Source: an uncultured Saprospiraceae bacterium
Lineage (GTDB): Bacteria > Bacteroidota > Bacteroidia > Chitinophagales > Saprospiraceae
Length of the DNA stretch: 64,000 bases
NCBI GenBank assembly: GCA_937923345.1
Contig: CAKZVJ010000164.1
Location: forward strand, 4,052-68,051
Direction of reading: 5' to 3'
Below, piece after piece: positions 1,901-54,559 of the stretch. Every line of letters starts with the position of its first letter. Within the stretch, counting starts at the first letter, position 1. The notes under the pieces were generated by a model. That model was not told where the DNA came from and searched no databases. It was given only the letters and a program-made list of their open reading frames with translations. A program made the position numbers and the translations under genes.

Positions 1901-2048
1901 GCGATCCTGCTTTTTGCAGGGAGCCTAGATTGGATGAGGGGTGGTAGCGGCATCCGTATGATATACAGACGCATTGATATGTGTCTATATCATACGGATA
2001 CAGCGGACGACCCGACCCTGAGCGAAGCGAATGGGTCAGCCCCACACC
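1901..2048 (+). repeat. GC-rich multi-hairpin interspersed element, type A, copy E1
   Basis: ATGAGGGGT box (1934-1942). GGTGGTAGCGGCA (1940-1952) and TACAGCGGACGAC (1999-2011) bracket an imperfect 17-19 bp hairpin. GACCC/GGGTC stem (2014-2018 / 2033-2037) encloses GCGAAGC. Ends in GCCCC. Confidence 0.8.
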
Positions 2049-19993: not shown

Positions 19994-20187
19994 ATCGCGA
20001 CTCGCCGAAGGCGTCCAAGCTCGACAAAGCTTGTCCCGACTGGAGTGTAACGGAATGTCGGGGCGAAGTGCGTAAGGGGCAAACGGTGGAAGCGGCACCC
20101 AGAATATACGCATGGCAATGCGTATATTCTGGGTACAGCGGACGACGTGGTTCCGTCCTGATTTTTCATCAGGATCGGGATGACCCC
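19994..20187 (+). repeat. GC-rich multi-hairpin interspersed element, type A, copy E2
   Basis: GGTGGAAGCGGCA (20085-20097) and TACAGCGGACGAC (20134-20146) bracket a perfect 16-bp hairpin (20098-20133). At least four further hairpins. Ends in GATGACCCC. Confidence 0.8.
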
Positions 20188-23436: not shown

Positions 23437-25101
23437 ATGATGCAGAAGAATTACCAAATCTTTACCCTTTTCATTTTATTATTATTCGCCGCAAGCATGG
23501 GTGCCCAATCTTTTGACAGACCCAATGGATTTGGCGGTCAAATCTTGATTATTGATCATGCTTCTTTTCAAGAGGATACTAATTTTGGATTAAGTGGTTT
23601 GACCACTGGCTTTGAATTTTCTTATAGCCGCCATTTTAATAAATTTCTCAGCTTGAGAGTACCTTTCAAAGGGGGAATTATTGGAGCGCAGGAATTTGAC
23701 TTTGCCAAAAATCGATCTTTTGTTGGCGTAGACTTAACTGTACAACTATCTTACTTTGGTAATGAGAATAAAATTGCACCCTTTGTTTATGGTGGATTTG
23801 GAGGAACAAAAGAGGAGTCTATGGATATATACAATCAAATTCCTGTAGGGGCTGGTCTGAATTTCAGAATCGGACCTTGGGGATTTTTTCAGACTAAAGT
23901 AGAATACCGAGCGGATCTTAATAACGAAGTAGAAAGAACCAATTTACAATATGGTCTTGGACTTGTAGCTGTGGTAGGGCCGACGGCTACGACTAAAGAA
24001 CTAGAGAAACTACTTTCAGATACAGACGGAGATGGGATAGATGATGACCTGGATCGTTGTCCAGATATCCCAGGCAAAAAACAATTTGGTGGCTGCCTTG
24101 ATTCTGACAATGATGGCATCGGGGATGCGGATGATAGCTGTCCACAGGACGTTGGCTTGAAAGCCCTCAATGGCTGCCCTGATGCGGATGCCGATGGAGT
24201 GGCGGACATAGTAGACAATTGCCCTGATATACCTGGGACCGCCAACGGCTGTCCAGATGCAGATCAAGATGGAGTAGCGGATACAGAGGACAAATGTCCA
24301 GATCTACCAGGTGGTAAAGAAGGCTTTGGCTGCCCAGAGGCGGTATTAGACAACAGCGATATTGCCATGGAGGATAACGTAATGGATGATGACATGACCA
24401 GTAAAGGAGAATCCGCAGTAGTCAATGATGCGGATGGTGACGGTTTTGTGTTAGCAGAGGATGATTGTCCAGATATGGCTGGGCCGGCAAATGGTTGCCC
24501 AGATGCTGATGGTGATGGCGTGGCGGATAAATTTGATGCTTGTCCAGATGCTGTCGGCCCATTAGCGGGTTGCCCAGATAGTGATAACGATGGAATAGCG
24601 GATTACAAAGACAGTTGCCCAAATATAGCTGGCAAAGCGTCTTCCTTTGGTTGTCCAGAGACGAATGTTTCCACAGGGTCTCCAGACTCTTATACCAATA
24701 GTACCTACACCGAATCATACACTAATACGACAATTACAAAATCAGCGCTTACTCTAATGTCTGATGCAACAAAGACGGTACAGTTCAAAACATTGAGTGA
24801 TGATTTGACGAGTTCTTCTTTTGATGTACTCAATGAAGTAGTCCAGTTGATGATTGCTAATCCAAATTATAGACTAAAAGTGTCTGGCCATACCGATGAT
24901 AGAGGTGAAGATTCTGTCAATCAAAGGCTTTCTGAAAAGAGAGCACGTGCCTGTGTGAGACATCTTCGCAATCAGGGTGTGCCTGAAATTCAAATGAGTT
25001 ACATGGGCTATGGGGCTAGACTTCCAGTCACTGACAATGACACAGAGTACGGCCGTAGTCAAAACAGAAGAGTAGAATTCGAATTGTATATAATTAACTA
25101 A
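23437..25101 (+). CDS. OmpA-family outer-membrane protein with thrombospondin type-3 repeats
   Basis: Signal peptide and N-terminal beta-barrel. About 10 D-x-D-x-D-G-[IV]-x-D Ca-binding repeats (DSDNDGIGDADDSCP and similar). C-terminal OmpA domain GHTDDRG...NRRVEFEL. Confidence 0.9.
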   Translation: MMQKNYQIFTLFILLLFAASMGAQSFDRPNGFGGQILIIDHASFQEDTNFGLSGLTTGFEFSYSRHFNKFLSLRVPFKGGIIGAQEFDFAKNRSFVGVDLTVQLSYFGNENKIAPFVYGGFGGTKEESMDIYNQIPVGAGLNFRIGPWGFFQTKVEYRADLNNEVERTNLQYGLGLVAVVGPTATTKELEKLLSDTDGDGIDDDLDRCPDIPGKKQFGGCLDSDNDGIGDADDSCPQDVGLKALNGCPDADADGVADIVDNCPDIPGTANGCPDADQDGVADTEDKCPDLPGGKEGFGCPEAVLDNSDIAMEDNVMDDDMTSKGESAVVNDADGDGFVLAEDDCPDMAGPANGCPDADGDGVADKFDACPDAVGPLAGCPDSDNDGIADYKDSCPNIAGKASSFGCPETNVSTGSPDSYTNSTYTESYTNTTITKSALTLMSDATKTVQFKTLSDDLTSSSFDVLNEVVQLMIANPNYRLKVSGHTDDRGEDSVNQRLSEKRARACVRHLRNQGVPEIQMSYMGYGARLPVTDNDTEYGRSQNRRVEFELYIIN

Positions 25102-25232: not shown

Positions 25233-26801
25233 ATGCTAAATCTACAAATTGCAGATACTTTTTCCAAAGAATTACCTGCTGACCCTATTTTAGAAAACTC
25301 TAGACGACAAGTATCCAATGCCTGTTTTTCATACGTCACCCCACGTATACCCAGCAGCCCTTCTCTAGTCCATGTAGCGAACGAGGTGGCTGATATGTTG
25401 GGGCTGTCCACGGAGGATACCAAGAGTCAAGACTTTTTAGACCTCTTTTCTGGAGCCAAGGTATTTCCAGGATCACAGCCATATGCGATGTGTTACGGAG
25501 GTCATCAATTTGGGCATTGGGCGGGACAATTGGGAGACGGTCGAGCGATCAATTTGATGGAGATCATGGCCAGAGACAAGCGTTGGGCACTTCAGCTCAA
25601 GGGGGCAGGGGAGACACCATACTCTAGGTCGGCGGATGGACTAGCCGTATTGCGATCCTCTATCAGAGAGCATCTTTGTAGTGAAGCCATGTTTCATTTG
25701 GGCGTGCCCACCACGCGTTCGCTCTCCCTTTGTTTGAGCGGAGATATGGTGATGCGCGACATGATGTACGATGGCAATCCAGCCAATGAAAAAGGCGCTA
25801 TCGTTTGTCGAGTAGCAGAAAGTTTTATACGATTTGGAAATTTTCAGATACTAGCCAGTCGCGAAGATACAGACGCGCTCAAGCAATTGGTAGAGTATAC
25901 CATAAAGCATTTCTTCCCGAGCATAAAGACGAAAGGAGAAAAAGCCTATCAGCAATTTTTTGATGAAGTAGTAACTAGCACTTTAGTTATGTTAATCGAA
26001 TGGCAGCGCGTAGGATTTGTACATGGTGTGATGAATACCGACAACATGTCTATCCTGGGGCTCACTATTGACTATGGTCCCTACGGTTGGCTAGAGGGCT
26101 ATGATAAAGGCTGGACGCCCAACACCACCGACCGTCAACATAAACGATACCAATATGGTCAGCAACCCACAGTAGGACTTTGGAATCTTTTCCAACTCGC
26201 AAATGCATTAGCGCTTATTATCGAAGATGTCAAGCCACTCGAACAATCCTTAGAGCGCTTCAAAGTTCAGTTTGCGCAAGGATACACCCGTATGATGGCA
26301 CTCAAGCTGGGATTGACAAAAGCTACACAAGCAGATCTACTCTTGATCAAAAGCTTAGAAGATAATCTGAGTATGGTAGAGACTGATATGACCATTTTCT
26401 TCAGACTACTGAGTACCGTTCAAAAGAAAGACAAAGCAAGTGAAGCCTTCGCACGTATAGCAGATGCATTCTATGATATCGAGGCCCTAGCCGAAACAGA
26501 ATTGAAAAAATGGTTAGATTGGTTTACAGCTTATCTGCGTAGATTACAAGAAGAGCTAGCTACAGATTACGAACGAAAGATTCGGATGAACATGTACAAT
26601 CCAAAATACGTGTTGCGAAACTACATGGCTCAGATAGCTATTGATGACGCGGATAAAGGAGACTACACTATGATAGATACCTTTTATAAAATGCTTCAAA
26701 AGCCTTACCATGAGCAACCAGAATATGAAAAATGGTTTGCCAAGCGTCCAGAATGGGCGAGAAATAAGGTAGGCTGCTCTATGCTTTCCTGTAGTTCTTA
26801 A
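25233..26801 (+). CDS. selO: protein adenylyltransferase SelO (YdiU/UPF0061)
   Basis: YGGHQFGHWAGQLGDGRAI, LKGAGETPYSR and HGVMNTDNMSILGLTIDYGPYG motifs. Confidence 0.9.
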   Translation: MLNLQIADTFSKELPADPILENSRRQVSNACFSYVTPRIPSSPSLVHVANEVADMLGLSTEDTKSQDFLDLFSGAKVFPGSQPYAMCYGGHQFGHWAGQLGDGRAINLMEIMARDKRWALQLKGAGETPYSRSADGLAVLRSSIREHLCSEAMFHLGVPTTRSLSLCLSGDMVMRDMMYDGNPANEKGAIVCRVAESFIRFGNFQILASREDTDALKQLVEYTIKHFFPSIKTKGEKAYQQFFDEVVTSTLVMLIEWQRVGFVHGVMNTDNMSILGLTIDYGPYGWLEGYDKGWTPNTTDRQHKRYQYGQQPTVGLWNLFQLANALALIIEDVKPLEQSLERFKVQFAQGYTRMMALKLGLTKATQADLLLIKSLEDNLSMVETDMTIFFRLLSTVQKKDKASEAFARIADAFYDIEALAETELKKWLDWFTAYLRRLQEELATDYERKIRMNMYNPKYVLRNYMAQIAIDDADKGDYTMIDTFYKMLQKPYHEQPEYEKWFAKRPEWARNKVGCSMLSCSS

Positions 26802-26807
26802 TTTTTT

Positions 26808-26940
26808 GGGCATGACCCAGATACTGCGCAGAAAAAGCGCCGCATCTGGGTCGGGCCATCCATGACTCCGTATTCACTTCGGACCATCCCTTGAGGGTCT
26901 GGTCTGCTCCTTACCGTCGCATCATTTCTACCCCTCATGC
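26808..26940 (-). repeat. GC-rich multi-hairpin element, diverged type A, inverted copy E3
   Basis: The reverse complement carries ATGAGGGGT (26930-26938 on the plus strand) and CCCGACCCAG...CTGGGTCATGCCC, which matches the E1 3' module CCCGACCCTG...GGGTCAGCCCC. Confidence 0.6.
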
Positions 26941-27072
26941 AGTTGGATAATTATCACGATGAAATAATTAGTAATTCACCTTGACCAATACACTTAAACA
27001 ATCATTTTCTCTCTTATTATTCGCAATTGAAAGTAATAATTGCTAGTTTTAGTCATACTAAATTCAAACACT

Positions 27073-27557: not shown

Positions 27558-27616
27558 GATGGGCTACACCCATCGCTTTGTTGCATCGTGCCTTCAGCGC
27601 TAAAAGTACCTGGTAG
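27558..27616. repeat. possible degenerate fragment of the GC-rich element family (E4)
   Basis: GATGGGCTACACCC...GGTAGCC with GGCTAC/GTAGCC pairing. Resembles the ATGGGTAG 5' box of E8. Weak. Confidence 0.25.
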
Positions 27617-27676
27617 CCATTCATTTTCTTACCAATTTATTTTCTGAACATGCTTAATTCATAATCATTCATTTTG

Positions 27677-27795
27677 GAATGTTCAGAAATATCATATTTC
27701 GATGAGGTTAAACCTTCTTCACCTAAAAATCTCTAAATGATTACATCAATTTTAATATTATTACTTTAAAAACGGGGTGATTCTTTGATTCAATT
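27677..27795 (+). repeat. 119-nt AT-rich interspersed repeat, copy A
   Basis: Gapless 119-nt alignment to the reverse complement of 40981-41099 with 18 mismatches by my hand count. Identical blocks are ATGTTCAGAAATATCATATTTCG, AAAATCTCTAAATGATTA and TTAAAAACGGGGTGAT. Confidence 0.85.
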
Positions 27796-27825
27796 TGTCA
27801 TGATTTTTAAAAGAAAATCACGCCA

Positions 27826-27897
27826 AATTGGTCCCTGCTGCGCTAATACCCAGGGTTGTCACCCTGGGCTTTAATAAGGTCACCCCCTCTGGGGGTT
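27826..27897. repeat. possible short member of the GC-rich element family (E5)
   Basis: GCGCTAATACCCAGGG-ttgtca-CCCTGGG and GGTCACCCCCTCTGGGGG hairpins. The GCGCTAAT box resembles the GCTATKC box of type B. Confidence 0.35.
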
Positions 27898-28086
27898 CTT
27901 TTCTAACTTCTGAATATCCCTCATTTTGTTCTCGATTATTATAATATAAGCTAGCGTGTGCGAAACCACCACAGTAATCCAAAGTCAAAGCTCACTGATA
28001 CAAATCACCAGAGTATTTTATGGTGTCTTGTATAAATGAGAATGCTATAGTGAACTCCCTAATTCATAACTCATAATTCATAATTC

Positions 28087-28229
28087 CCTTCCTTCGTGTG
28101 AGCGATAGTAAGGGCAGCTGCTTCAGCAGCTGGTCCCGATTTTTTTCAATCGGGACGGGAGCGACAGCGCACCCCTGCATAGCGCGACATGGACCGACAC
28201 CTTTTTCGGTGGAGGGGAGTGGCACACCC
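28087..28229 (-). repeat. GC-rich multi-hairpin interspersed element, type B, inverted copy E6
   Basis: The reverse complement reads GGGTGTGCC...GCGCTATGCAGGGGTGC...GTCCCGAT-tgaaaaaa-ATCGGGAC...CAGCTGC-tgaa-GCAGCTG...CCCTTACTATCGCTCACACGAAGG. It is collinear with E7. Confidence 0.75.
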
Positions 28230-28263
28230 AAAAAATCCGAACTAATATTATTACCTGTCAAAT

Positions 28264-28314
28264 AAAAAAAAAGGACTGATCAATAATGTTTGACCAATCC
28301 TTTGTTTTTTTTTT
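28264..28314. terminator. putative bidirectional terminator downstream of fadA
   Basis: A9 run, imperfect 12-bp stem AGGACTGATCAA / TTGACCAATCCT with two mismatches, then a T-rich run. Confidence 0.45.
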
Positions 28315-28370
28315 ATTTTGAGCTAATAGCAAAGGCTAACAGCTAAAGGCTTTTTGCCAACAGCTAATAC

Positions 28371-29537
28371 CTAATTAAGCAACTCATAGATACCAGCGAT
28401 ACCTTGACCACCACCTACGCAGGCAGTCACCATACCGTACTTGTCACCTCGTCTACGCATCTCATTGAAGAGTTGTGTCGAAAGTTTCGCGCCCGTACAG
28501 CCTAAAGGATGTCCTAAAGCAATAGCGCCTCCATTTACATTCACCTTGCTAGGATCTAAACCCGTTTGCTTTATGACAGCTAAGGCCTGAGTAGCGAACG
28601 CCTCATTGAGCTCTATTAAGTCAATGTCATCTTGTTTCAGGCCAGCTTGCTTAAGTGCCTTAGGAATAGCTGCGCAAGGTCCAATACCCATGTACAGTGG
28701 ATCTACACCCGCAACTGCACAATTGACCATTCTTGCGATAGGCTTTAGATTATATTTCTTTACGATTTCTTCACTTACTACGAGTACAAAAGATGCTCCG
28801 TCAGAAGTCTGAGACGAATTACCAGCCGTAACTACACCTCCGTTTTTGAACACTGCTCTTAAGCCACCTAGAGCTTCTACAGTCGTGCTTCTACGAACGC
28901 CTTCATCCATAGTGAAGTCAAACTCTTTCTCCTGACGCTTATCGTCTTTGACAAATACCTCCTTCACTTTGATAGGCACTATCTCGTCGTTGAATTTACC
29001 CGCATCGATGGCAGCAGCAGCTTTCACATGAGAATTGTAAGCAAACTCATCCGCTTGATCTCTGGTCACTTCGTACTTGTCTGCAACCGCTTCTGCAGTG
29101 GCTCCCATACTCACCATGTAGTTTGGTGTAGAGACAGCTACCTTATATGAAGGAGCAAACTTGTATCCCGTCATAGGAATCATGCTCATGCTTTCTGTAC
29201 CACCAGCGATGTAGATATGCCCCATACCTGCAGCAATCTTACCAGTAGCCATAGCGATAGCCTCTAGACCAGAAGCACAGTATCTATTGATCGTGATACC
29301 TGGCACTTCCTTTCCAAGCGCTCTTACAGAAATCATTCTTCCGATCTGTAAGCCTTGTTCTCCTTCAGGATTAGCACAACCCACAATCACGTCATCCACC
29401 AACTCTTTCGCAATCTCAGGCACCTGTTCCATCATGTGTGAAATAACCTCCACGGCTAAATCATCAGAACGGTAGTTTTTCAAGCTACCTCTGCCAGCTT
29501 TACCGACTGGACTTCTATATGCTTTTATGATATACAT
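28371..29537 (-). CDS. fadA: acetyl-CoA C-acyltransferase (3-ketoacyl-CoA thiolase)
   Basis: Active-site NRYCASGLEA, GHPLGCTGA and CVGGGQGIA motifs. Confidence 0.9.
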   Translation of the reverse strand: MYIIKAYRSPVGKAGRGSLKNYRSDDLAVEVISHMMEQVPEIAKELVDDVIVGCANPEGEQGLQIGRMISVRALGKEVPGITINRYCASGLEAIAMATGKIAAGMGHIYIAGGTESMSMIPMTGYKFAPSYKVAVSTPNYMVSMGATAEAVADKYEVTRDQADEFAYNSHVKAAAAIDAGKFNDEIVPIKVKEVFVKDDKRQEKEFDFTMDEGVRRSTTVEALGGLRAVFKNGGVVTAGNSSQTSDGASFVLVVSEEIVKKYNLKPIARMVNCAVAGVDPLYMGIGPCAAIPKALKQAGLKQDDIDLIELNEAFATQALAVIKQTGLDPSKVNVNGGAIALGHPLGCTGAKLSTQLFNEMRRRGDKYGMVTACVGGGQGIAGIYELLN

Positions 29538-33026: not shown

Positions 33027-33440
33027 ATGGGCTTGAAAAAAAGAGGTAAAGTAAGTGCCGAATTTAGTATGTCGTCATTGACGGACATCATATTTTTGTT
33101 GTTGATATTTTTTATGTTGACATCAAAACTGGTGGTCATTGACCCGTACGAACTGCCAGAGTCAGATTCTACCACTGTAGCACCTACAAATATTATTGCA
33201 CAAGTAAGAACTACCGGCAAAATCCAGTTGAACGTAGATGGTAAGGAATCTATGGTCACCTCTACGAGAGAGATTGTGAGAAAAGTAAAGCCAGCCTTAG
33301 GTACTATTGAGAATAGAGACAATGCAACGCTCACCATTGTAGCAGAGGTCGGCGTCCCTTTTAAAAAAGTATCTATGCTGATGGCTGCTGCCGCTGAGTT
33401 AAGGATGAAAGCCATTATTGCAACACAACCTGTAGAATAA
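33027..33440 (+). CDS. exbD: ExbD/TolR biopolymer transport protein (paralogue 1)
   Basis: SLTDIIFLLLIFFM TM segment containing the conserved Asp, plus a periplasmic domain. Confidence 0.85.
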   Translation: MGLKKRGKVSAEFSMSSLTDIIFLLLIFFMLTSKLVVIDPYELPESDSTTVAPTNIIAQVRTTGKIQLNVDGKESMVTSTREIVRKVKPALGTIENRDNATLTIVAEVGVPFKKVSMLMAAAAELRMKAIIATQPVE

Positions 33441-33446
33441 AAGATT

Positions 33447-33836
33447 ATGGGACTTAAAAAAAGAGGTAAGGTAAGCGCTGAATTTAGTATGTCCTCATTG
33501 ACGGACATCATATTTTTGTTGCTTATATTTTTTATGCTGACATCGTCTTTGGTATCGCCCAATGCCCTCAATCTCAAGATGCCAGGTAAGGAAAGTGTCA
33601 AGAGCTCTACTGCAAATAACTTACAAAAAATTTCGATCACCAAGACAGGTTCATTCTTGTTTGAGGGAGTTGCGGTAAGTAACAACGCCATCAGTGATCT
33701 GATGAAAGGCATGAAAGGGGAGACCATCATAGTAGCTCCTCATCGCGATGCGCCGATTGAGAAGGTAGTCCGCATCATGGACCTTTCTATGCGTTACAAA
33801 ATCGAGACGGTGCTAGCGGCCTCAGACGACAGATAG
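33447..33836 (+). CDS. exbD: ExbD/TolR biopolymer transport protein (paralogue 2)
   Basis: First 33 aa are identical to paralogue 1. The periplasmic domain is divergent. Confidence 0.85.
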   Translation: MGLKKRGKVSAEFSMSSLTDIIFLLLIFFMLTSSLVSPNALNLKMPGKESVKSSTANNLQKISITKTGSFLFEGVAVSNNAISDLMKGMKGETIIVAPHRDAPIEKVVRIMDLSMRYKIETVLAASDDR

Positions 33837-33870: not shown

Positions 33871-34067
33871 ATGAGGGTGTGCCCCCTGATGGCCTCTCAA
33901 CGCCTCAAAAAAGAGGCCTTTAGAGGCCATCAGGCGTCGGGCTATTGCGGGGTGCCCGTTCCGATAGTTTTTTCTGATAGGTAGTTGTTTCTGTAAAACT
34001 GCAGCTAGTCAATAAAAAATCGGAACCGCCAAGAAGATTCGGCGCCCTATCTATCCCTCACACGAAG
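33871..34067 (+). repeat. GC-rich multi-hairpin interspersed element, type B, copy E7
   Basis: ATGAGGGTGTGCC. Perfect 13-bp stem 33885-33897 / 33922-33934 with a nested GCCTC/GAGGC hairpin. GGGCTATTGCGGGGTGC. GTTCCGAT (33958-33965) pairs with ATCGGAAC (34019-34026) across a 53-nt AT-rich loop. Ends in GCCCTATCTATCCCTCACACGAAG. Confidence 0.75.
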
Positions 34068-34306
34068 ACCTATTACCGAGAATAAAGTGTAAACTACTTA
34101 CAAAATAGGACTATGTTTAACGAACTAGATCTGTAGGTAGAAAACCACGTAAGCTAGACTCGTATTCATATAAAGAGTAAAAATGAAAGCGCTTTAAAAA
34201 TATCTAAGAACGTACATTTTTACGCATTATTTAATTTTAATATATATCTTTACAACAGACATAGTCGTTAAGTAATCAAAAACATAGCCTCTGTGGAATC
34301 TAAATC

Positions 34307-39977: not shown

Positions 39978-40982
39978 ATGGAGAGATTACAAATTTATGT
40001 GTCGATGATATTTCTACTTTCAATGTACACTTATACCATCAATGCGCAAACCCCTTTGTTTCCAAATTCGGTGGTGAGTAATGATATTGATTACATATTT
40101 GAATCGGATCCTGATTCTTTCGTTGGGAATATTTTCCTTGGTCGAGAAGATAGAGAAACACCTGGTGCTCCAGATGGGAGCAGCTTGTTTGATGTAGATA
40201 CTTATATTTTTGAAGCAAATTTTACAGACGGAGAAACAATCGAAATTTGGTGCCACAGTTCTTTTGAAAGTCAAGATGCTGCCCAAGAGTTTGCTGATAA
40301 ACTAGGGCCTAGACTCGGTAAGTTACCTATATTTCAAAGAAACATGTTAAACCACGTAGTAATTCATAATGGGGATGGTGGTGCTTTTGCCGAAATAGAA
40401 GGTCAATTTTTTATCCTTTATTCCGAAAATATGGATGCGAGAATTAGTACTAATGATTTGGAAGAAACTGTCTTTCATGAATCGGTACATTCTTCGTATC
40501 AGTTTATGTATCAAAATCATCCTGATTGGCTCGCTGCACAGGCAGCTGATCTTTCATTTGTTACGACCTTTGGGGAGAATAATCCTACCTTGGAGGATAT
40601 TGCCGAGTCTGCTCTTTTTGCTTATACATATCTCACCTATCCAGGAAGACTTGATGAAAGTATTGAAACTTGGTTGGAAGAAAACAATGCCAATAGATTA
40701 GAATTTTTTGGTAAGTTTTATGGTCAAACTACTAATGTAAGTGAAGTAGATTTACTCCAAGATCTAAGGATTAGCCCTAATCCTTCTAGAGGTAAATTTA
40801 CCTTGCATTCGGATGGAGCTTTAAATGGGGTAGTAAATATTATTAGCCTAGATGGGACCATTCTAAATTCACTACGGGTTGATAAGGAAAGTGAGTATAC
40901 CATAGATTTGAGCTCTTATGAAAATGGATTATATCTGATTTCAATACCAGGATATAAAGACGCAAAAGTTTTAAAATATTAA
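39978..40982 (+). CDS. T9SS C-terminal-sorting-domain protein with an HExxH motif
   Basis: Signal peptide. FHESVH (HExxH) in the N-terminal domain. C-terminal tail of about 80 aa, ISPNPSRGKFTL...GLYLISI...KVLKY, typical of type-A Por secretion tails. Confidence 0.65.
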   Translation: MERLQIYVSMIFLLSMYTYTINAQTPLFPNSVVSNDIDYIFESDPDSFVGNIFLGREDRETPGAPDGSSLFDVDTYIFEANFTDGETIEIWCHSSFESQDAAQEFADKLGPRLGKLPIFQRNMLNHVVIHNGDGGAFAEIEGQFFILYSENMDARISTNDLEETVFHESVHSSYQFMYQNHPDWLAAQAADLSFVTTFGENNPTLEDIAESALFAYTYLTYPGRLDESIETWLEENNANRLEFFGKFYGQTTNVSEVDLLQDLRISPNPSRGKFTLHSDGALNGVVNIISLDGTILNSLRVDKESEYTIDLSSYENGLYLISIPGYKDAKVLKY

Positions 40983-41099
40983 TTGAATCTGAGTATCACC
41001 CCGTTTTTAATTCAATAATCTTAAAAATGAATTAATCATTTAGAGATTTTAAGATGTAGAATGTTTTATCTCAACGAAATATGATATTTCTGAACATCC
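40981..41099 (-). repeat. 119-nt AT-rich interspersed repeat, copy B (inverted)
   Basis: Reverse complement aligns to 27677-27795. Begins inside the TAA stop codon (40980-40982) of the T9SS cargo gene. Confidence 0.85.
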
Positions 41100-41253
41100 C
41101 TACTTTGTCATGGTTTCTCTCAATAAGCAAAACAACCTGGAGCTATCTATAGCTCAGTTATTTTATTCTGAGAGTTGAGAGCTAGTAAAAAATAAAAACG
41201 ATAACCAATTCAACATTCAACCTACGACATAACGTTTATGCTAGATCCTACAT

Positions 41254-50068: not shown

Positions 50069-51142
50069 ATGAGTAATATAAACATTACCAAAGTTAGCCA
50101 TTCCAGAGTAGATCAGGTAGATTTTGACAATATACCTTTTGGCCAAACTTTTTCTGATCACATGTATGTTGCAGATTACATTGATGGCAAATGGACTAAC
50201 CATTCTATTGTTCCATTTGGTAATCTTTCTCTAAGCCCAGTAAATCTCGCTCTTCATTATGGACAGTCCATTTTTGAGGGCATGAAAGCGTTCAAAAAGA
50301 AAGATGGTACTCCTTCATTATTTAGACCTGAGCAGCATGTGATAAGGTTAAATGCTTCTGCTAGAAGAATGATGATGCCTGAGATTTCCAAAGAAATGTT
50401 TTTGGAAGCAGTACACGCGATTGTAGATATGGAGCAAAATTGGATTCCTAAGTCTAAAGGCTCGGCGCTATATTTACGGCCCGTCATGTTTGCTACGGAA
50501 GCTAAGCTCGGTGTCAAAGTATCGACTACTTACAAATTCATAATCATTACTGGCCCAGTTGGACCTTACTATCCTAAGCCAGTCAGATTATTAGCTGAGA
50601 CAGAATATACAAGAGCTGCACAAGGTGGTGTAGGTGAAGCAAAAACAGCAGGAAATTACGCTGCCTCATTATTGCCAGCCCAGTTGGCTAAGGAAAAAGG
50701 ATTTGACCAAGTGATTTGGTTAGATGCCAAGGAATACAAATACGTACAAGAAGTAGGCACCATGAATTTATTCTTTGTTTTCAAAGATAAAGTGGTCACA
50801 CCTGAGACTTCCGGTAGTATATTAAAAGGAATCACTAGAAAATCAATTATTGAGATTTTGAAGGCAGATGGTGTCACAGTAGAGGAAAGACTCATTAGTA
50901 TGGACGAAGTAGTTTCTGCACATGAGAGCGGCGAACTGCTAGAAATGTTTGGGTCAGGTACCGCTGCAGTGGTGGCCAATGTCAGTGAATTTAGTTACAG
51001 GGATAAGTTATACAAATTAGCTGACGTATCCACTCATTCCACAGCCAATGGCTTAAGAGATAAGATCAATGCGCTTAGAGCTGGAGAAATTGAAGATACC
51101 TTTGGTTGGGTTGTGGACGTTAAGAGCACAGTAAAAGTGTAG
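50069..51142 (+). CDS. ilvE: branched-chain amino acid aminotransferase
   Basis: Class IV aminotransferase with YGQSIFEGMKAF and GVGEAKTAGNYAASL (PLP lysine region). Confidence 0.9.
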   Translation: MSNINITKVSHSRVDQVDFDNIPFGQTFSDHMYVADYIDGKWTNHSIVPFGNLSLSPVNLALHYGQSIFEGMKAFKKKDGTPSLFRPEQHVIRLNASARRMMMPEISKEMFLEAVHAIVDMEQNWIPKSKGSALYLRPVMFATEAKLGVKVSTTYKFIIITGPVGPYYPKPVRLLAETEYTRAAQGGVGEAKTAGNYAASLLPAQLAKEKGFDQVIWLDAKEYKYVQEVGTMNLFFVFKDKVVTPETSGSILKGITRKSIIEILKADGVTVEERLISMDEVVSAHESGELLEMFGSGTAAVVANVSEFSYRDKLYKLADVSTHSTANGLRDKINALRAGEIEDTFGWVVDVKSTVKV

Positions 51143-51203: not shown

Positions 51204-51346
51204 ATGGGTAGTATGGTTTGGCGGATCCACTTGCCAAGCTAGGCTACAAGGCTCGGCAGCAAGTGGCCAGGCTATTCGCAGCTCGGTCCCGAAAGAAAAT
51301 ATTCGGGACTGGTCTCTACCGAGCCCACTGCTACTATCCTTATCCG
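51204..51346 (+). repeat. GC-rich multi-hairpin interspersed element, type B, copy E8
   Basis: ATGGGTAG..., CCACTTGCC/GGCA(GC)AAGTGG stem, GGCTATTCGCAG, GTCCCGAA-agaaaata-TTCGGGAC inside CTCGG/CCGAG, ending in CTACTATCCTTATCCG. Confidence 0.65.
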
Positions 51347-51474
51347 AAAAAAGAATGCCTTTTAGATTGTTCCCTGAATTCAAATCTTACAGCAATAAAA
51401 CCTATAGAGAAAATTAAAAAGGGGAGGCCATATAGCATGACTTCCCCTTTTTGATTGATAGGACTCTAATCAAA

Positions 51475-54335: not shown

Positions 54336-54559
54336 CAGGCGGAAGCGGAACGCTGGAGCCCGTCGCTCGGTGAGCGCAAGGACAAAGAATCGAAACGGCA
54401 TACCCTATGTGCTGCGATGCATCAACTGCGTCGCAGCACATTTTTTTTTTACCAATATCTACCTTGCGGAATTCATACCTCAAGCACATAGGGTATATAG
54501 TGGAGAGTCTGGTGCCGTGCTGATGCAGGCTCTGCCTAAATCAGGATCGGTATGGCCCC
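54336..54559 (+). repeat. GC-rich multi-hairpin element, type A-like, copy E9 (encloses a terminator)
   Basis: GGCGGAAGCGGAA (54338-54350). 14-bp long-range stem 54400-54413 / 54483-54496. 3' module TCAGGATCGGTATGGCCCC matches TCAGGATCGGGATGACCCC in E2. Confidence 0.6.
54409..54450 (+). terminator. intrinsic terminator of the carbonic anhydrase gene, nested in element E9
   Basis: GTGCTGCGA (54409-54417) / TCGCAGCAC (54431-54439), followed by A then T10 (54441-54450). Confidence 0.8.

Follow-up and report, generated by a model that had tools for sequence, protein, structure and literature searches.

Downstream of a thiolase gene on the minus strand (fadA, 28371-29537), ~130 nt away and past a terminator-like hairpin, lies an island at positions 28086-28232 with a GC content of 55-58%, compared to 39% for the genome. 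An initial annotation of this island described it as an inverted copy of a hairpin-rich repeat, with base-pair changes in both arms relative to two other copies. This raises the question whether the pairing is indeed maintained and, if so, on which strand and in which kind of genetic element. The window (from here: the whole analysed stretch of 64,000 nucleotides, C164:4052-68051) belongs to a 4.47 Mb assembly of 335 contigs (G000), the closest public relatives of which are metagenome-assembled genomes of uncultured Saprospiraceae, order Chitinophagales.

An alignment of three copies from the window with MAFFT was poor and was replaced by iterative nhmmer searches starting from a single sequence. 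Seeded with copy 28086-28232 alone, nhmmer found 55 relatives in G000 and converged within five iterations on 251 copies of a family that we call type B. From 26 compact copies of this genome and a structure derived by hand, we built a covariance model (R1) that identifies at least 147 of the 251 (147 of the 150 candidates scored). R1 is specific, because seven related genomes without the family gave no match. Of the copies in G000, an exact pattern with at least 14 specified bases matched a few at most. Type-B elements are 140-200 nt long, GC-rich and intergenic (240 of 251, according to crude ORF-based gene calls, on which the other context figures rest as well). Their median pairwise identity is 54% and that between nearest neighbors 73%. 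No burst of near-identical copies was found in G000 except for duplicates at contig ends; the copies look old. Contig ends are enriched in type-B copies (40 observed, 17 expected), which help to fragment the assembly. Together with the related type A described below, the elements amount to ~370 copies or ~1.3% of the genome. In practical terms, such elements disrupt short-read assemblies and are open to mis-annotation as regulatory RNAs.

Within the window, R1 detects four type-B copies:

28086..28232, minus strand: the copy under study, in the R1 and E7/E8-collinear orientation (R1 match 28090-28232(-), 128.6 bits, E 5e-32)
26805..26946, plus strand: copy immediately behind the stop codon of ORF 25233-26801 (R1 111.7 bits)
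33872..34069, plus strand: copy E7, in the exbD-tonB spacer (R1 64.5 bits)
51217..51352, plus strand: copy E8, just past the terminator of ORF 50069-51142 (R1 77 bits)

R1 thus places the studied copy, E7 and E8 on the strands on which they had been described as collinear. The copy at 26805-26946(+) had earlier been called an inverted, diverged type-A copy and is a strong type-B element according to R1. E7 carries a 53-nt expansion that is confined to the loop of one hairpin (P6, see below). In the orientation of R1, the studied copy starts with TTTGG, extends from one arm of the closing helix P1 to the other and ends with the purine tail GAAGGAAGGG. It consists of the following parts:

28223..28227, minus strand: 5' arm of P1, GTGTG, pairing with 28096-28100
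28096..28100, minus strand: 3' arm of P1, CACAC, partner of 28223-28227
28188..28221, minus strand: variable hairpin P2, with inner CACC-gaaaaa-GGTG; its outer stem is degraded here
28180..28185, minus strand: 5' arm of P3, GCG-C-TA, Flavo-1-like core (CTATCC box), pairing with 28102-28107
28102..28107, minus strand: 3' arm of P3, TA-T-CGC, partner of 28180-28185
28173..28176, minus strand: 5' arm of P4, AGGG, pairing with 28111-28114 (CCCT)
28111..28114, minus strand: 3' arm of P4, CCCT, partner of 28173-28176
28157..28172, minus strand: short hairpin P5, GTGCG-CTGT-CGCTCC, in which closing and inner pairs covary
28133..28156, minus strand: hairpin P6, GTCCCGAT-tgaaaaaa-ATCGGGAC, the 8-bp hairpin of the initial annotation
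28115..28132, minus strand: hairpin P7, CAGCTGC-tgaa-GCAGCTG, abutting P6 and part of a four-way junction

All sequence boxes and hairpins reported by the initial annotation for 28087-28229, E7 and E8 are present as described. P6 reads GTCCCGAT/ATCGGGAC here, GTTCCGAT/ATCGGAAC in E7 and GTCCCGAA/TTCGGGAC in E8, with the double changes C:G to T:A in E7 and T:A to A:T in E8. The next hairpin, P7, pairs in both of the compared copies although its sequence differs entirely (CAGCTGC-tgaa-GCAGCTG here, CGCC...GGCG in E7). In the studied copy, P3 shows a further compensatory exchange, from GGG/CCC to GCG/CGC, the outer part of P2 is poorly paired with four mismatched pairs, and the plus strand of P5 forms a purine 3x3 internal loop.

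Family-wide, the fold comprises seven helices: the closing helix P1 (5 bp), the long and variable hairpin P2, a stem made of P3 (3 + 2 bp) and P4 (4 bp), and the hairpins P5 (short), P6 and P7 (variable). P1, P2 and P3 meet in a three-way junction, while P4, P5, P6 and P7 abut without any unpaired linker, giving a perfect four-way junction. The P3-P4 stem follows the order 3 bp, A.G, UA:UA, GNA-GNA, and P5 carries a further GAA/GGA purine loop. It is unusual for bacterial repeats that so complex a fold is kept in each of hundreds of highly diverged copies.

Evidence for this fold comes from mutual information with APC correction, computed on the nhmmer match columns, an alignment that was not fitted to any structure. 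Almost all top signals were nested Watson-Crick pairs comprising all four pair types, for instance columns 60:123 (GC86, TA37, CG33, AT21; 98% paired) and 10:138 (CG85, GC38, TA30, AT15), followed by 61:122, 12:136, 13:135, 51:132, 50:133, 63:78 and 62:121. In P5, the pair 63:78 is CG in 105 and GC in 67 copies, and 67:74 and 68:73 covary as well; covariation extends over all seven helices. The covariation observed in alignment A1 was reached by none of 500 column shuffles, and pairing fell from 76% to ~40% when the 3' partner was shifted by 1-3 columns. In an alignment of 20 matches from other genomes, including other classes, pairing was 91% and again none of 500 shuffles reached the observed covariation, with the caveat that this alignment was fitted to the model. 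The P2, P6 and P7 segments fold more stably than their shuffles, with median z scores of -4.4, -2.4 and -1.8, respectively. One column pair, 54:130, covaries outside the Watson-Crick types, from T.T to C.C in R1 orientation; read on the opposite strand, these are A to G changes, by which the A.G mismatch is swapped and a U.G wobble arises.

The initial annotation had proposed that a larger sample be examined for one-sided substitutions occurring as often as double ones. Relative to the commonest pair, both sides had changed with pairing kept in 1025 cases overall, one side alone had changed and broken the pair in 382, and a wobble had arisen in 91; compensated and one-sided changes numbered 287 and 20 in P1, and 373 and 88 in P4. 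These counts refer to sequences and not to events, yet many independent events are required, because identity is only 54% in the median and 73% between nearest neighbors. Anchored positions are paired to ~91% despite this divergence, and G.U wobbles account for only ~1-2% of anchored pairs. Together with the compensatory differences between orthologous copies described next, these results support the view of the initial annotation that pairing is maintained and that the copies are not decaying pseudo-repeats.

E7 has orthologues on two contigs from other samples (L173 and L174), next to an identical ExbD2, at the same site and with the same 3' flank. They differ from E7 by G:C to T:A in P4, T:A to C:G in P6 and C:G to A:T in P7. 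The E8 element is kept in G002, where the protein of ORF 50069-51142 is 88% identical; between the two genomes, P3 changed from A:T to G:C, in addition to further double changes. The spacers downstream of the same ORF in G005 and G007 lack the E8 element and are too diverged to place the exact junctions. Pairing hence outlasts the surrounding spacer, which can no longer be aligned; it is either kept at the site or re-established by conversion with other copies as donors.

Some observations were made alongside at these and neighboring loci. On L173 (2530-3200) and L174 (1075-1750), from samples ERZ6864144 and ERZ6864208, the exbD-tonB spacer measures ~870 nt compared to 470 nt and contains 2-3 tandem units of ~190 nt (AGCTGCAGCGCAGCGACAT...GGGACAAATTGT) that do not occur in the window; an ORF of 142-150 aa is called on the opposite strand. 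The 5' ends of the adjacent exbD paralogues (33027-33124 and 33447-33544) are 90% identical over 98 nt, which suggests that they were recently duplicated or converted. The studied copy (C164:32131-32289 in G000) and one on contig C294 (29663-29809) are ~96% identical over the 3' 96 nt and possess entirely different P2 hairpins, a pattern that points to module swapping or hairpin replacement as the probable origin of the difference. An AT-rich repeat of 120 nt, unrelated to the GC-rich elements, occurs in two inverted copies 13 kb apart (27676-27795 and 40981-41100) that are 85% complementary. At 27849-27897 on the plus strand, a weak, sub-threshold match to the Rfam family Acido-Lenti-1 (24.7 bits, cut-off 37) covers a CCCAGGG...CCCTGGG hairpin and, after it, a second GC hairpin; it is probably merely a terminator-like hairpin. 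Finally, five diverged direct repeats of 50 nt at 24017-24624, within ORF 23437-25101, encode Asp-rich units of calcium-binding, thrombospondin type 3 character.

Folding is strand-specific. Three independent measures, namely the types of mismatches, the folding energy and the strand matched by the Flavo-1 model, point to the complement of the R1/E7/E8 orientation as the favored strand; at 28086-28232, this is the plus strand. Among single mismatches in P2, P6 and P7, with stems defined by Watson-Crick pairs, A.C outnumbers G.T by 47 to 17 in R1 orientation, and pyrimidine pairs (Y.Y) outnumber purine pairs (R.R) by 127 to 29. Read on the complement, these are G.U/G.T and purine-purine mismatches, the least destabilizing kinds. 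The minimum free energy was lower for the complement of R1 in 185 of 208 copies with RNA parameters and in 198 of 208 with DNA parameters. For the studied copy itself, both strands fold about equally (-59.4 and -57.7 kcal/mol). One pointer goes in the opposite direction: in R1 orientation, the 5' TTT faces a 3' purine run (an A-run or G-rich), and U:A or U.G pairs between these ends are possible only on the R1 strand. The designation of the studied copy as inverted therefore holds with regard to E7 and E8, relative to which it lies on the minus strand, whereas the strand that folds better throughout the family is the plus strand at this locus.

Flank logos show sharp element ends, with T..TTTGGG at the 5' end and a C followed by the purine run at the 3' end. 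Outside these ends, information in the logos did not exceed 0.3 bits, with no promoter or terminator at a fixed distance. An intrinsic terminator was not found either, the T-run or A-run being on the wrong side in either orientation. We considered the 5' TnnTTTG as a Bacteroidota -7 promoter box and rejected it: its spacing departs from TAnnTTTG, and transcription starting there would leave out the covarying arm of P1. The ends of the element pair as P1, yet any of the four pair types can stand at its inner 4 bp, which vary freely.

A core resembling that of type B is known from the Flavo-1 motif (Rfam RF01705; Weinberg et al. 2010, PMC2864571), which Rfam classes as Gene; sRNA. A search of 27600-28400 with RF01705 at E values up to 10 left copy 28086-28232 unmatched, and no RF01705 match was obtained in the whole window at the gathering level (42 bits); at neither setting did Rfam assign the studied copy to any family. 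In G000, 14 sub-threshold matches were found, at type-A-like loci and none at type-B copies. An overlap occurs in another family of the class, where an R1 match of 60.8 bits on the minus strand of L160 coincides with an RF01705 match on the plus strand that, at 39.6 bits, falls just short of the 42-bit cut-off; in L159, of the same genus, R1 alone gave a match. On the favored strand, the type-B core reads GGG-A-UA-GGA-AGGA...UCCU-GGA-UA-G-CCC-GAC, and the canonical Flavo-1 core (Rfam consensus, 12 copies) CCG-A-UA-GnA-GU-GGA...AC-GAA-UA-G-CGG-GAAA. The likeness, seen when the complement of R1 is read, spans columns 50-62 and 121-133 and comprises in identical order a 3-bp GC helix, an A.G mismatch, UA:UA, a symmetric 3x3 GNA/GNA loop, a further helix and GA. 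Both are multi-copy intergenic elements of Bacteroidota that have no known function. They differ in that canonical Flavo-1 is a single hairpin of ~78 nt without P1, P2 and the four-way junction, whereas type B measures 140-200 nt, adds the covarying closing helix P1 and the hairpin P2, and has a three-hairpin four-way junction in place of the hairpin tip of Flavo-1. Type B is therefore probably not an isolated new family but a relative of Flavo-1, and we class it as a new and larger variant within a Flavo-1 superfamily and outside RF01705 as now defined. Genomes of genus g90 contain at least 100-150 copies each of canonical Flavo-1, which reaches hundreds of copies in Flavobacterium-like genomes. 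It has been listed in Rfam since 2010 as an unexplained "sRNA"; our results suggest that it is the short form of a far larger superfamily of folded repeats.

Type A, a separate subfamily with 119 copies in G000, is represented in the window by three elements, all in the orientation opposite to R1:

19994..20186, plus strand: type-A element
1919..2025, plus strand: type-A element
54352..54558, plus strand: type-A element

R1 gave one weak match (24.7 bits) on these elements. Three of the 119 copies overlap type-B matches, on opposite strands, and the two types have hairpin modules in common, such as a GTCCCGA...TCGGGAC-like stem.

The arrangement of neighboring genes gives little indication of a function at the transcript level. 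In spacers between co-directional genes, the R1 orientation is the same as that of the genes in 62 cases and opposite in 34, a weak bias; copies are mildly overrepresented in convergent spacers. Pairing, scored at 20 anchored pairs, amounts to 0.90-0.93 in all four classes of gene context and is equally intact in divergent spacers, where read-through is impossible. In the transcriptome of Flavobacterium psychrophilum, Flavo-1 matches lie on either strand relative to transcribed regions, and a large number of them are not transcribed (PMC9723704). Covariation alone does not make the folded molecule an RNA, and the context leans against a function at the level of transcripts.

Features of known mobile elements were sought around the copies. 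The longest word shared between the two flanks measured 5.04, compared to 4.87 in a permuted control, giving no sign of a target-site duplication (TSD); copy-specific complementarity of the flanks and a conserved terminal inverted repeat (TIR) were not found. No internal column covaried with the flank or the purine tail in the manner of a guide. A Y1/RAYT transposase (PF01797) was rejected as a partner, since it shows neither co-occurrence with nor adjacency to the element: PF01797 is present in 109 and the element in 52 of the 151 genomes of the order, without association, some carriers of the element lack Y1 (G111, G032, G075, G080), many genomes have Y1 without the element, and no type-B copy is located next to the Y1 genes of G000. 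A search for multi-copy ORFs in G000 yielded no multi-copy transposase and no IS family. Clustering of neighboring genes revealed no enzyme recurring beside type-B copies; only giant surface-type proteins recur, with 17 of 410 flanking ORFs forming one cluster of repeat-rich proteins of 745-4463 aa, which may reflect a mild enrichment or merely shared repeat domains. BLAST searches of plasmid and phage collections returned no match to the element. Downstream of fadA in G007, where the thiolase is 98% identical, synteny stops at the stop codon; among the relatives, all too diverged, no clean pair of filled and empty sites could be aligned.

The distribution of the family is patchy. R1 matches occur in 52 of 151 genomes and 32 of 83 genera of the order, and in 32 of 301 genomes across the phylum, including other classes. 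Within the genus, G002 and G004-G007 carry at least 121-143 R1 copies each, while the congeners G001 and G003 have none, nor do five sister genera of the same family (G008-G012). The family thus comes and goes between species of one genus, and type A has an identical pattern of presence and absence among 13 related genomes. Such all-or-none, lineage-specific abundance is the pattern of mobile or selfish repeats and not that of a needed host RNA.

We regard it as probable, though well short of certain, that the element is a structure-dependent, non-autonomous selfish intergenic repeat of the mobile type, belonging to a Bacteroidota-wide Flavo-1 superfamily. This reading is based on the high copy number, the sharp ends and the enrichment at contig ends; on covariation throughout the family and compensatory changes between orthologous copies; on the strand asymmetry in folding energy and tolerated mismatches; on the phyletic pattern shared with type A; on the absence of any transcript logic, given the weak orientation bias, the lack of promoter and terminator, pairing that is independent of context and the transcription pattern of Flavo-1 in F. 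psychrophilum (PMC9723704); and on the link to Flavo-1. Diverged copies that keep their fold, combined with an on/off distribution, imply a trans-acting reader of the structure. Such a protein would read the fold on one single strand and would copy, move or protect the element, so that only copies keeping the fold persist. The strand could be read as DNA exposed during replication or repair, toward which we lean, or in an RNA or cDNA intermediate, and a regulatory tie to the neighboring fadA or selO would not be expected. Against the selfish reading count the lack of a mobilizing enzyme, TSD, TIR, clean empty site and plasmid or phage match, the old-looking copies with 73% nearest-neighbor identity, and features of the favored strand that look like RNA, namely purine-rich internal loops and a GNRA-like P5 loop. 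The in-place compensation of orthologues, moreover, also fits a function beneficial to the host.

The last points would suit a multi-copy structured non-coding RNA family with a host function, for example as 3'-end stabilizer, protein sponge or cis/trans regulator, with selection acting on a plus-strand transcript at 28086-28232. Strong covariation in all helices and between orthologues, G.U exceeding A.C on the favored strand, tandem G.A-type GNA/GNA loops, the C(GAAN)G loop of P5, paired 5' and 3' ends as in stable RNAs and the position of many copies just downstream of genes or terminators all speak for it. We nevertheless consider it rather unlikely: the flanks hold no conserved promoter or terminator, and the logos show no such signals at a conserved distance as an independent sRNA gene would have; the folding strand is more often antisense than sense to co-directional neighbors (62 versus 34); structure is equally kept where read-through cannot occur; more than 120 copies in some species and zero in congeners are hard to reconcile with a needed RNA; wobbles are rarer than in typical RNA families; and transcription of Flavo-1 in F. 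psychrophilum is inconsistent (PMC9723704). Near-strict Watson-Crick pairing with few wobbles would in turn agree with a host-domesticated DNA element similar to REP/BIME. Its hairpins or cruciforms would serve as binding sites for a protein of the nucleoid, a topoisomerase or a recombination protein and would influence supercoiling, replication or recombination, and the element would spread by recombination instead of transposition. Such a role also agrees with the high number of GC-rich hairpins between the genes of an AT-rich genome, with the likeness of the perfect four-way junction to a Holliday junction, with the dyad symmetry of the GGATAG core, to which a dimer could bind well, and with the independence from the transcription context. 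It appears less probable still, as a symmetric cruciform would not be expected to show strand asymmetry in mismatches and energy, complete absence from congeners argues against a core chromosome function, and the binding protein is putative. That the copies are neutral, decaying remnants of an old repeat, paired through shared ancestry or chance, is highly improbable. Counts of sequences instead of events, variants shared within some subfamilies and locally degraded hairpins such as P2 of the studied copy would be compatible with decay; all four Watson-Crick types at many positions with 93-98% pairing at 54% identity, the failure of all 500 shuffles, the collapse in the slid controls and the large excess of double over single changes (1025 versus 382) are not.

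Under the selfish reading, the reader enzyme can be searched for by phyletic profiling, with six carriers and seven non-carriers in the family and 52 and 99 in the order. A wider proposal, which we put forward tentatively and consider doubtful at present, is that a single phylum-wide class of non-autonomous mobile elements, lacking TIR and TSD, comprises Flavo-1 as well as types A and B, and that a structure-specific enzyme reads the fold of one strand. Transposition or retention would then require the single-stranded three-way and perfect four-way junctions around the dyad-symmetric GGAUAG/GNA core. In a more speculative variant, the variable terminal purine run would have been added to an RNA intermediate as a tail, without template or by an activity of the PNPase type, and the strand that folds would be the complementary cDNA. 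If this were true, the elements would be bacterial SINE-like retro-elements.

Among known repeat systems, ERIC/IRU of enterobacteria, bcr1 of the Bacillus cereus group and the Correia elements are 100-200 nt long and occur in tens to hundreds of copies. They have predicted conserved folds with compensatory substitutions and are variably present between relatives. Type B is similar to them in size, copy range, compensatory fold and variable presence. These elements possess conserved terminal inverted repeats and target-site duplications, whereas type B has neither, is more diverged and has a more complex fold with a three-way and a four-way junction. The classical hallmarks of DDE-derived MITEs, conserved terminal inverted repeats and TSD, are both missing from type B.

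Like type B, REP/BIME and REPIN-RAYT systems are high-copy intergenic structured repeats with lineage-specific abundance (PMC3733652, PMC6006769), in which structure is maintained and strand-specific and a target-site duplication is lacking. REPs are, however, simple palindromes of 20-40 nt, usually arranged as inverted doublets, while type B has seven helices and its 251 copies include only four adjacent inverted pairs; co-occurrence with or adjacency to Y1 is not seen for type B. PATEs, the miniature elements derived from IS200/IS605 that act as single-stranded DNA (PMC6006769), differ from type B in their link to TnpA/Y1, in the pairing between guide and cleavage site and in having two subterminal hairpins instead of a multi-junction fold. 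In common with type B they have a strand-specific secondary structure without TIR and TSD, and the ends of type B are likewise sharp and asymmetric, with CCCAAAnnA at one end of the folding strand and a pyrimidine-run flank at the other.
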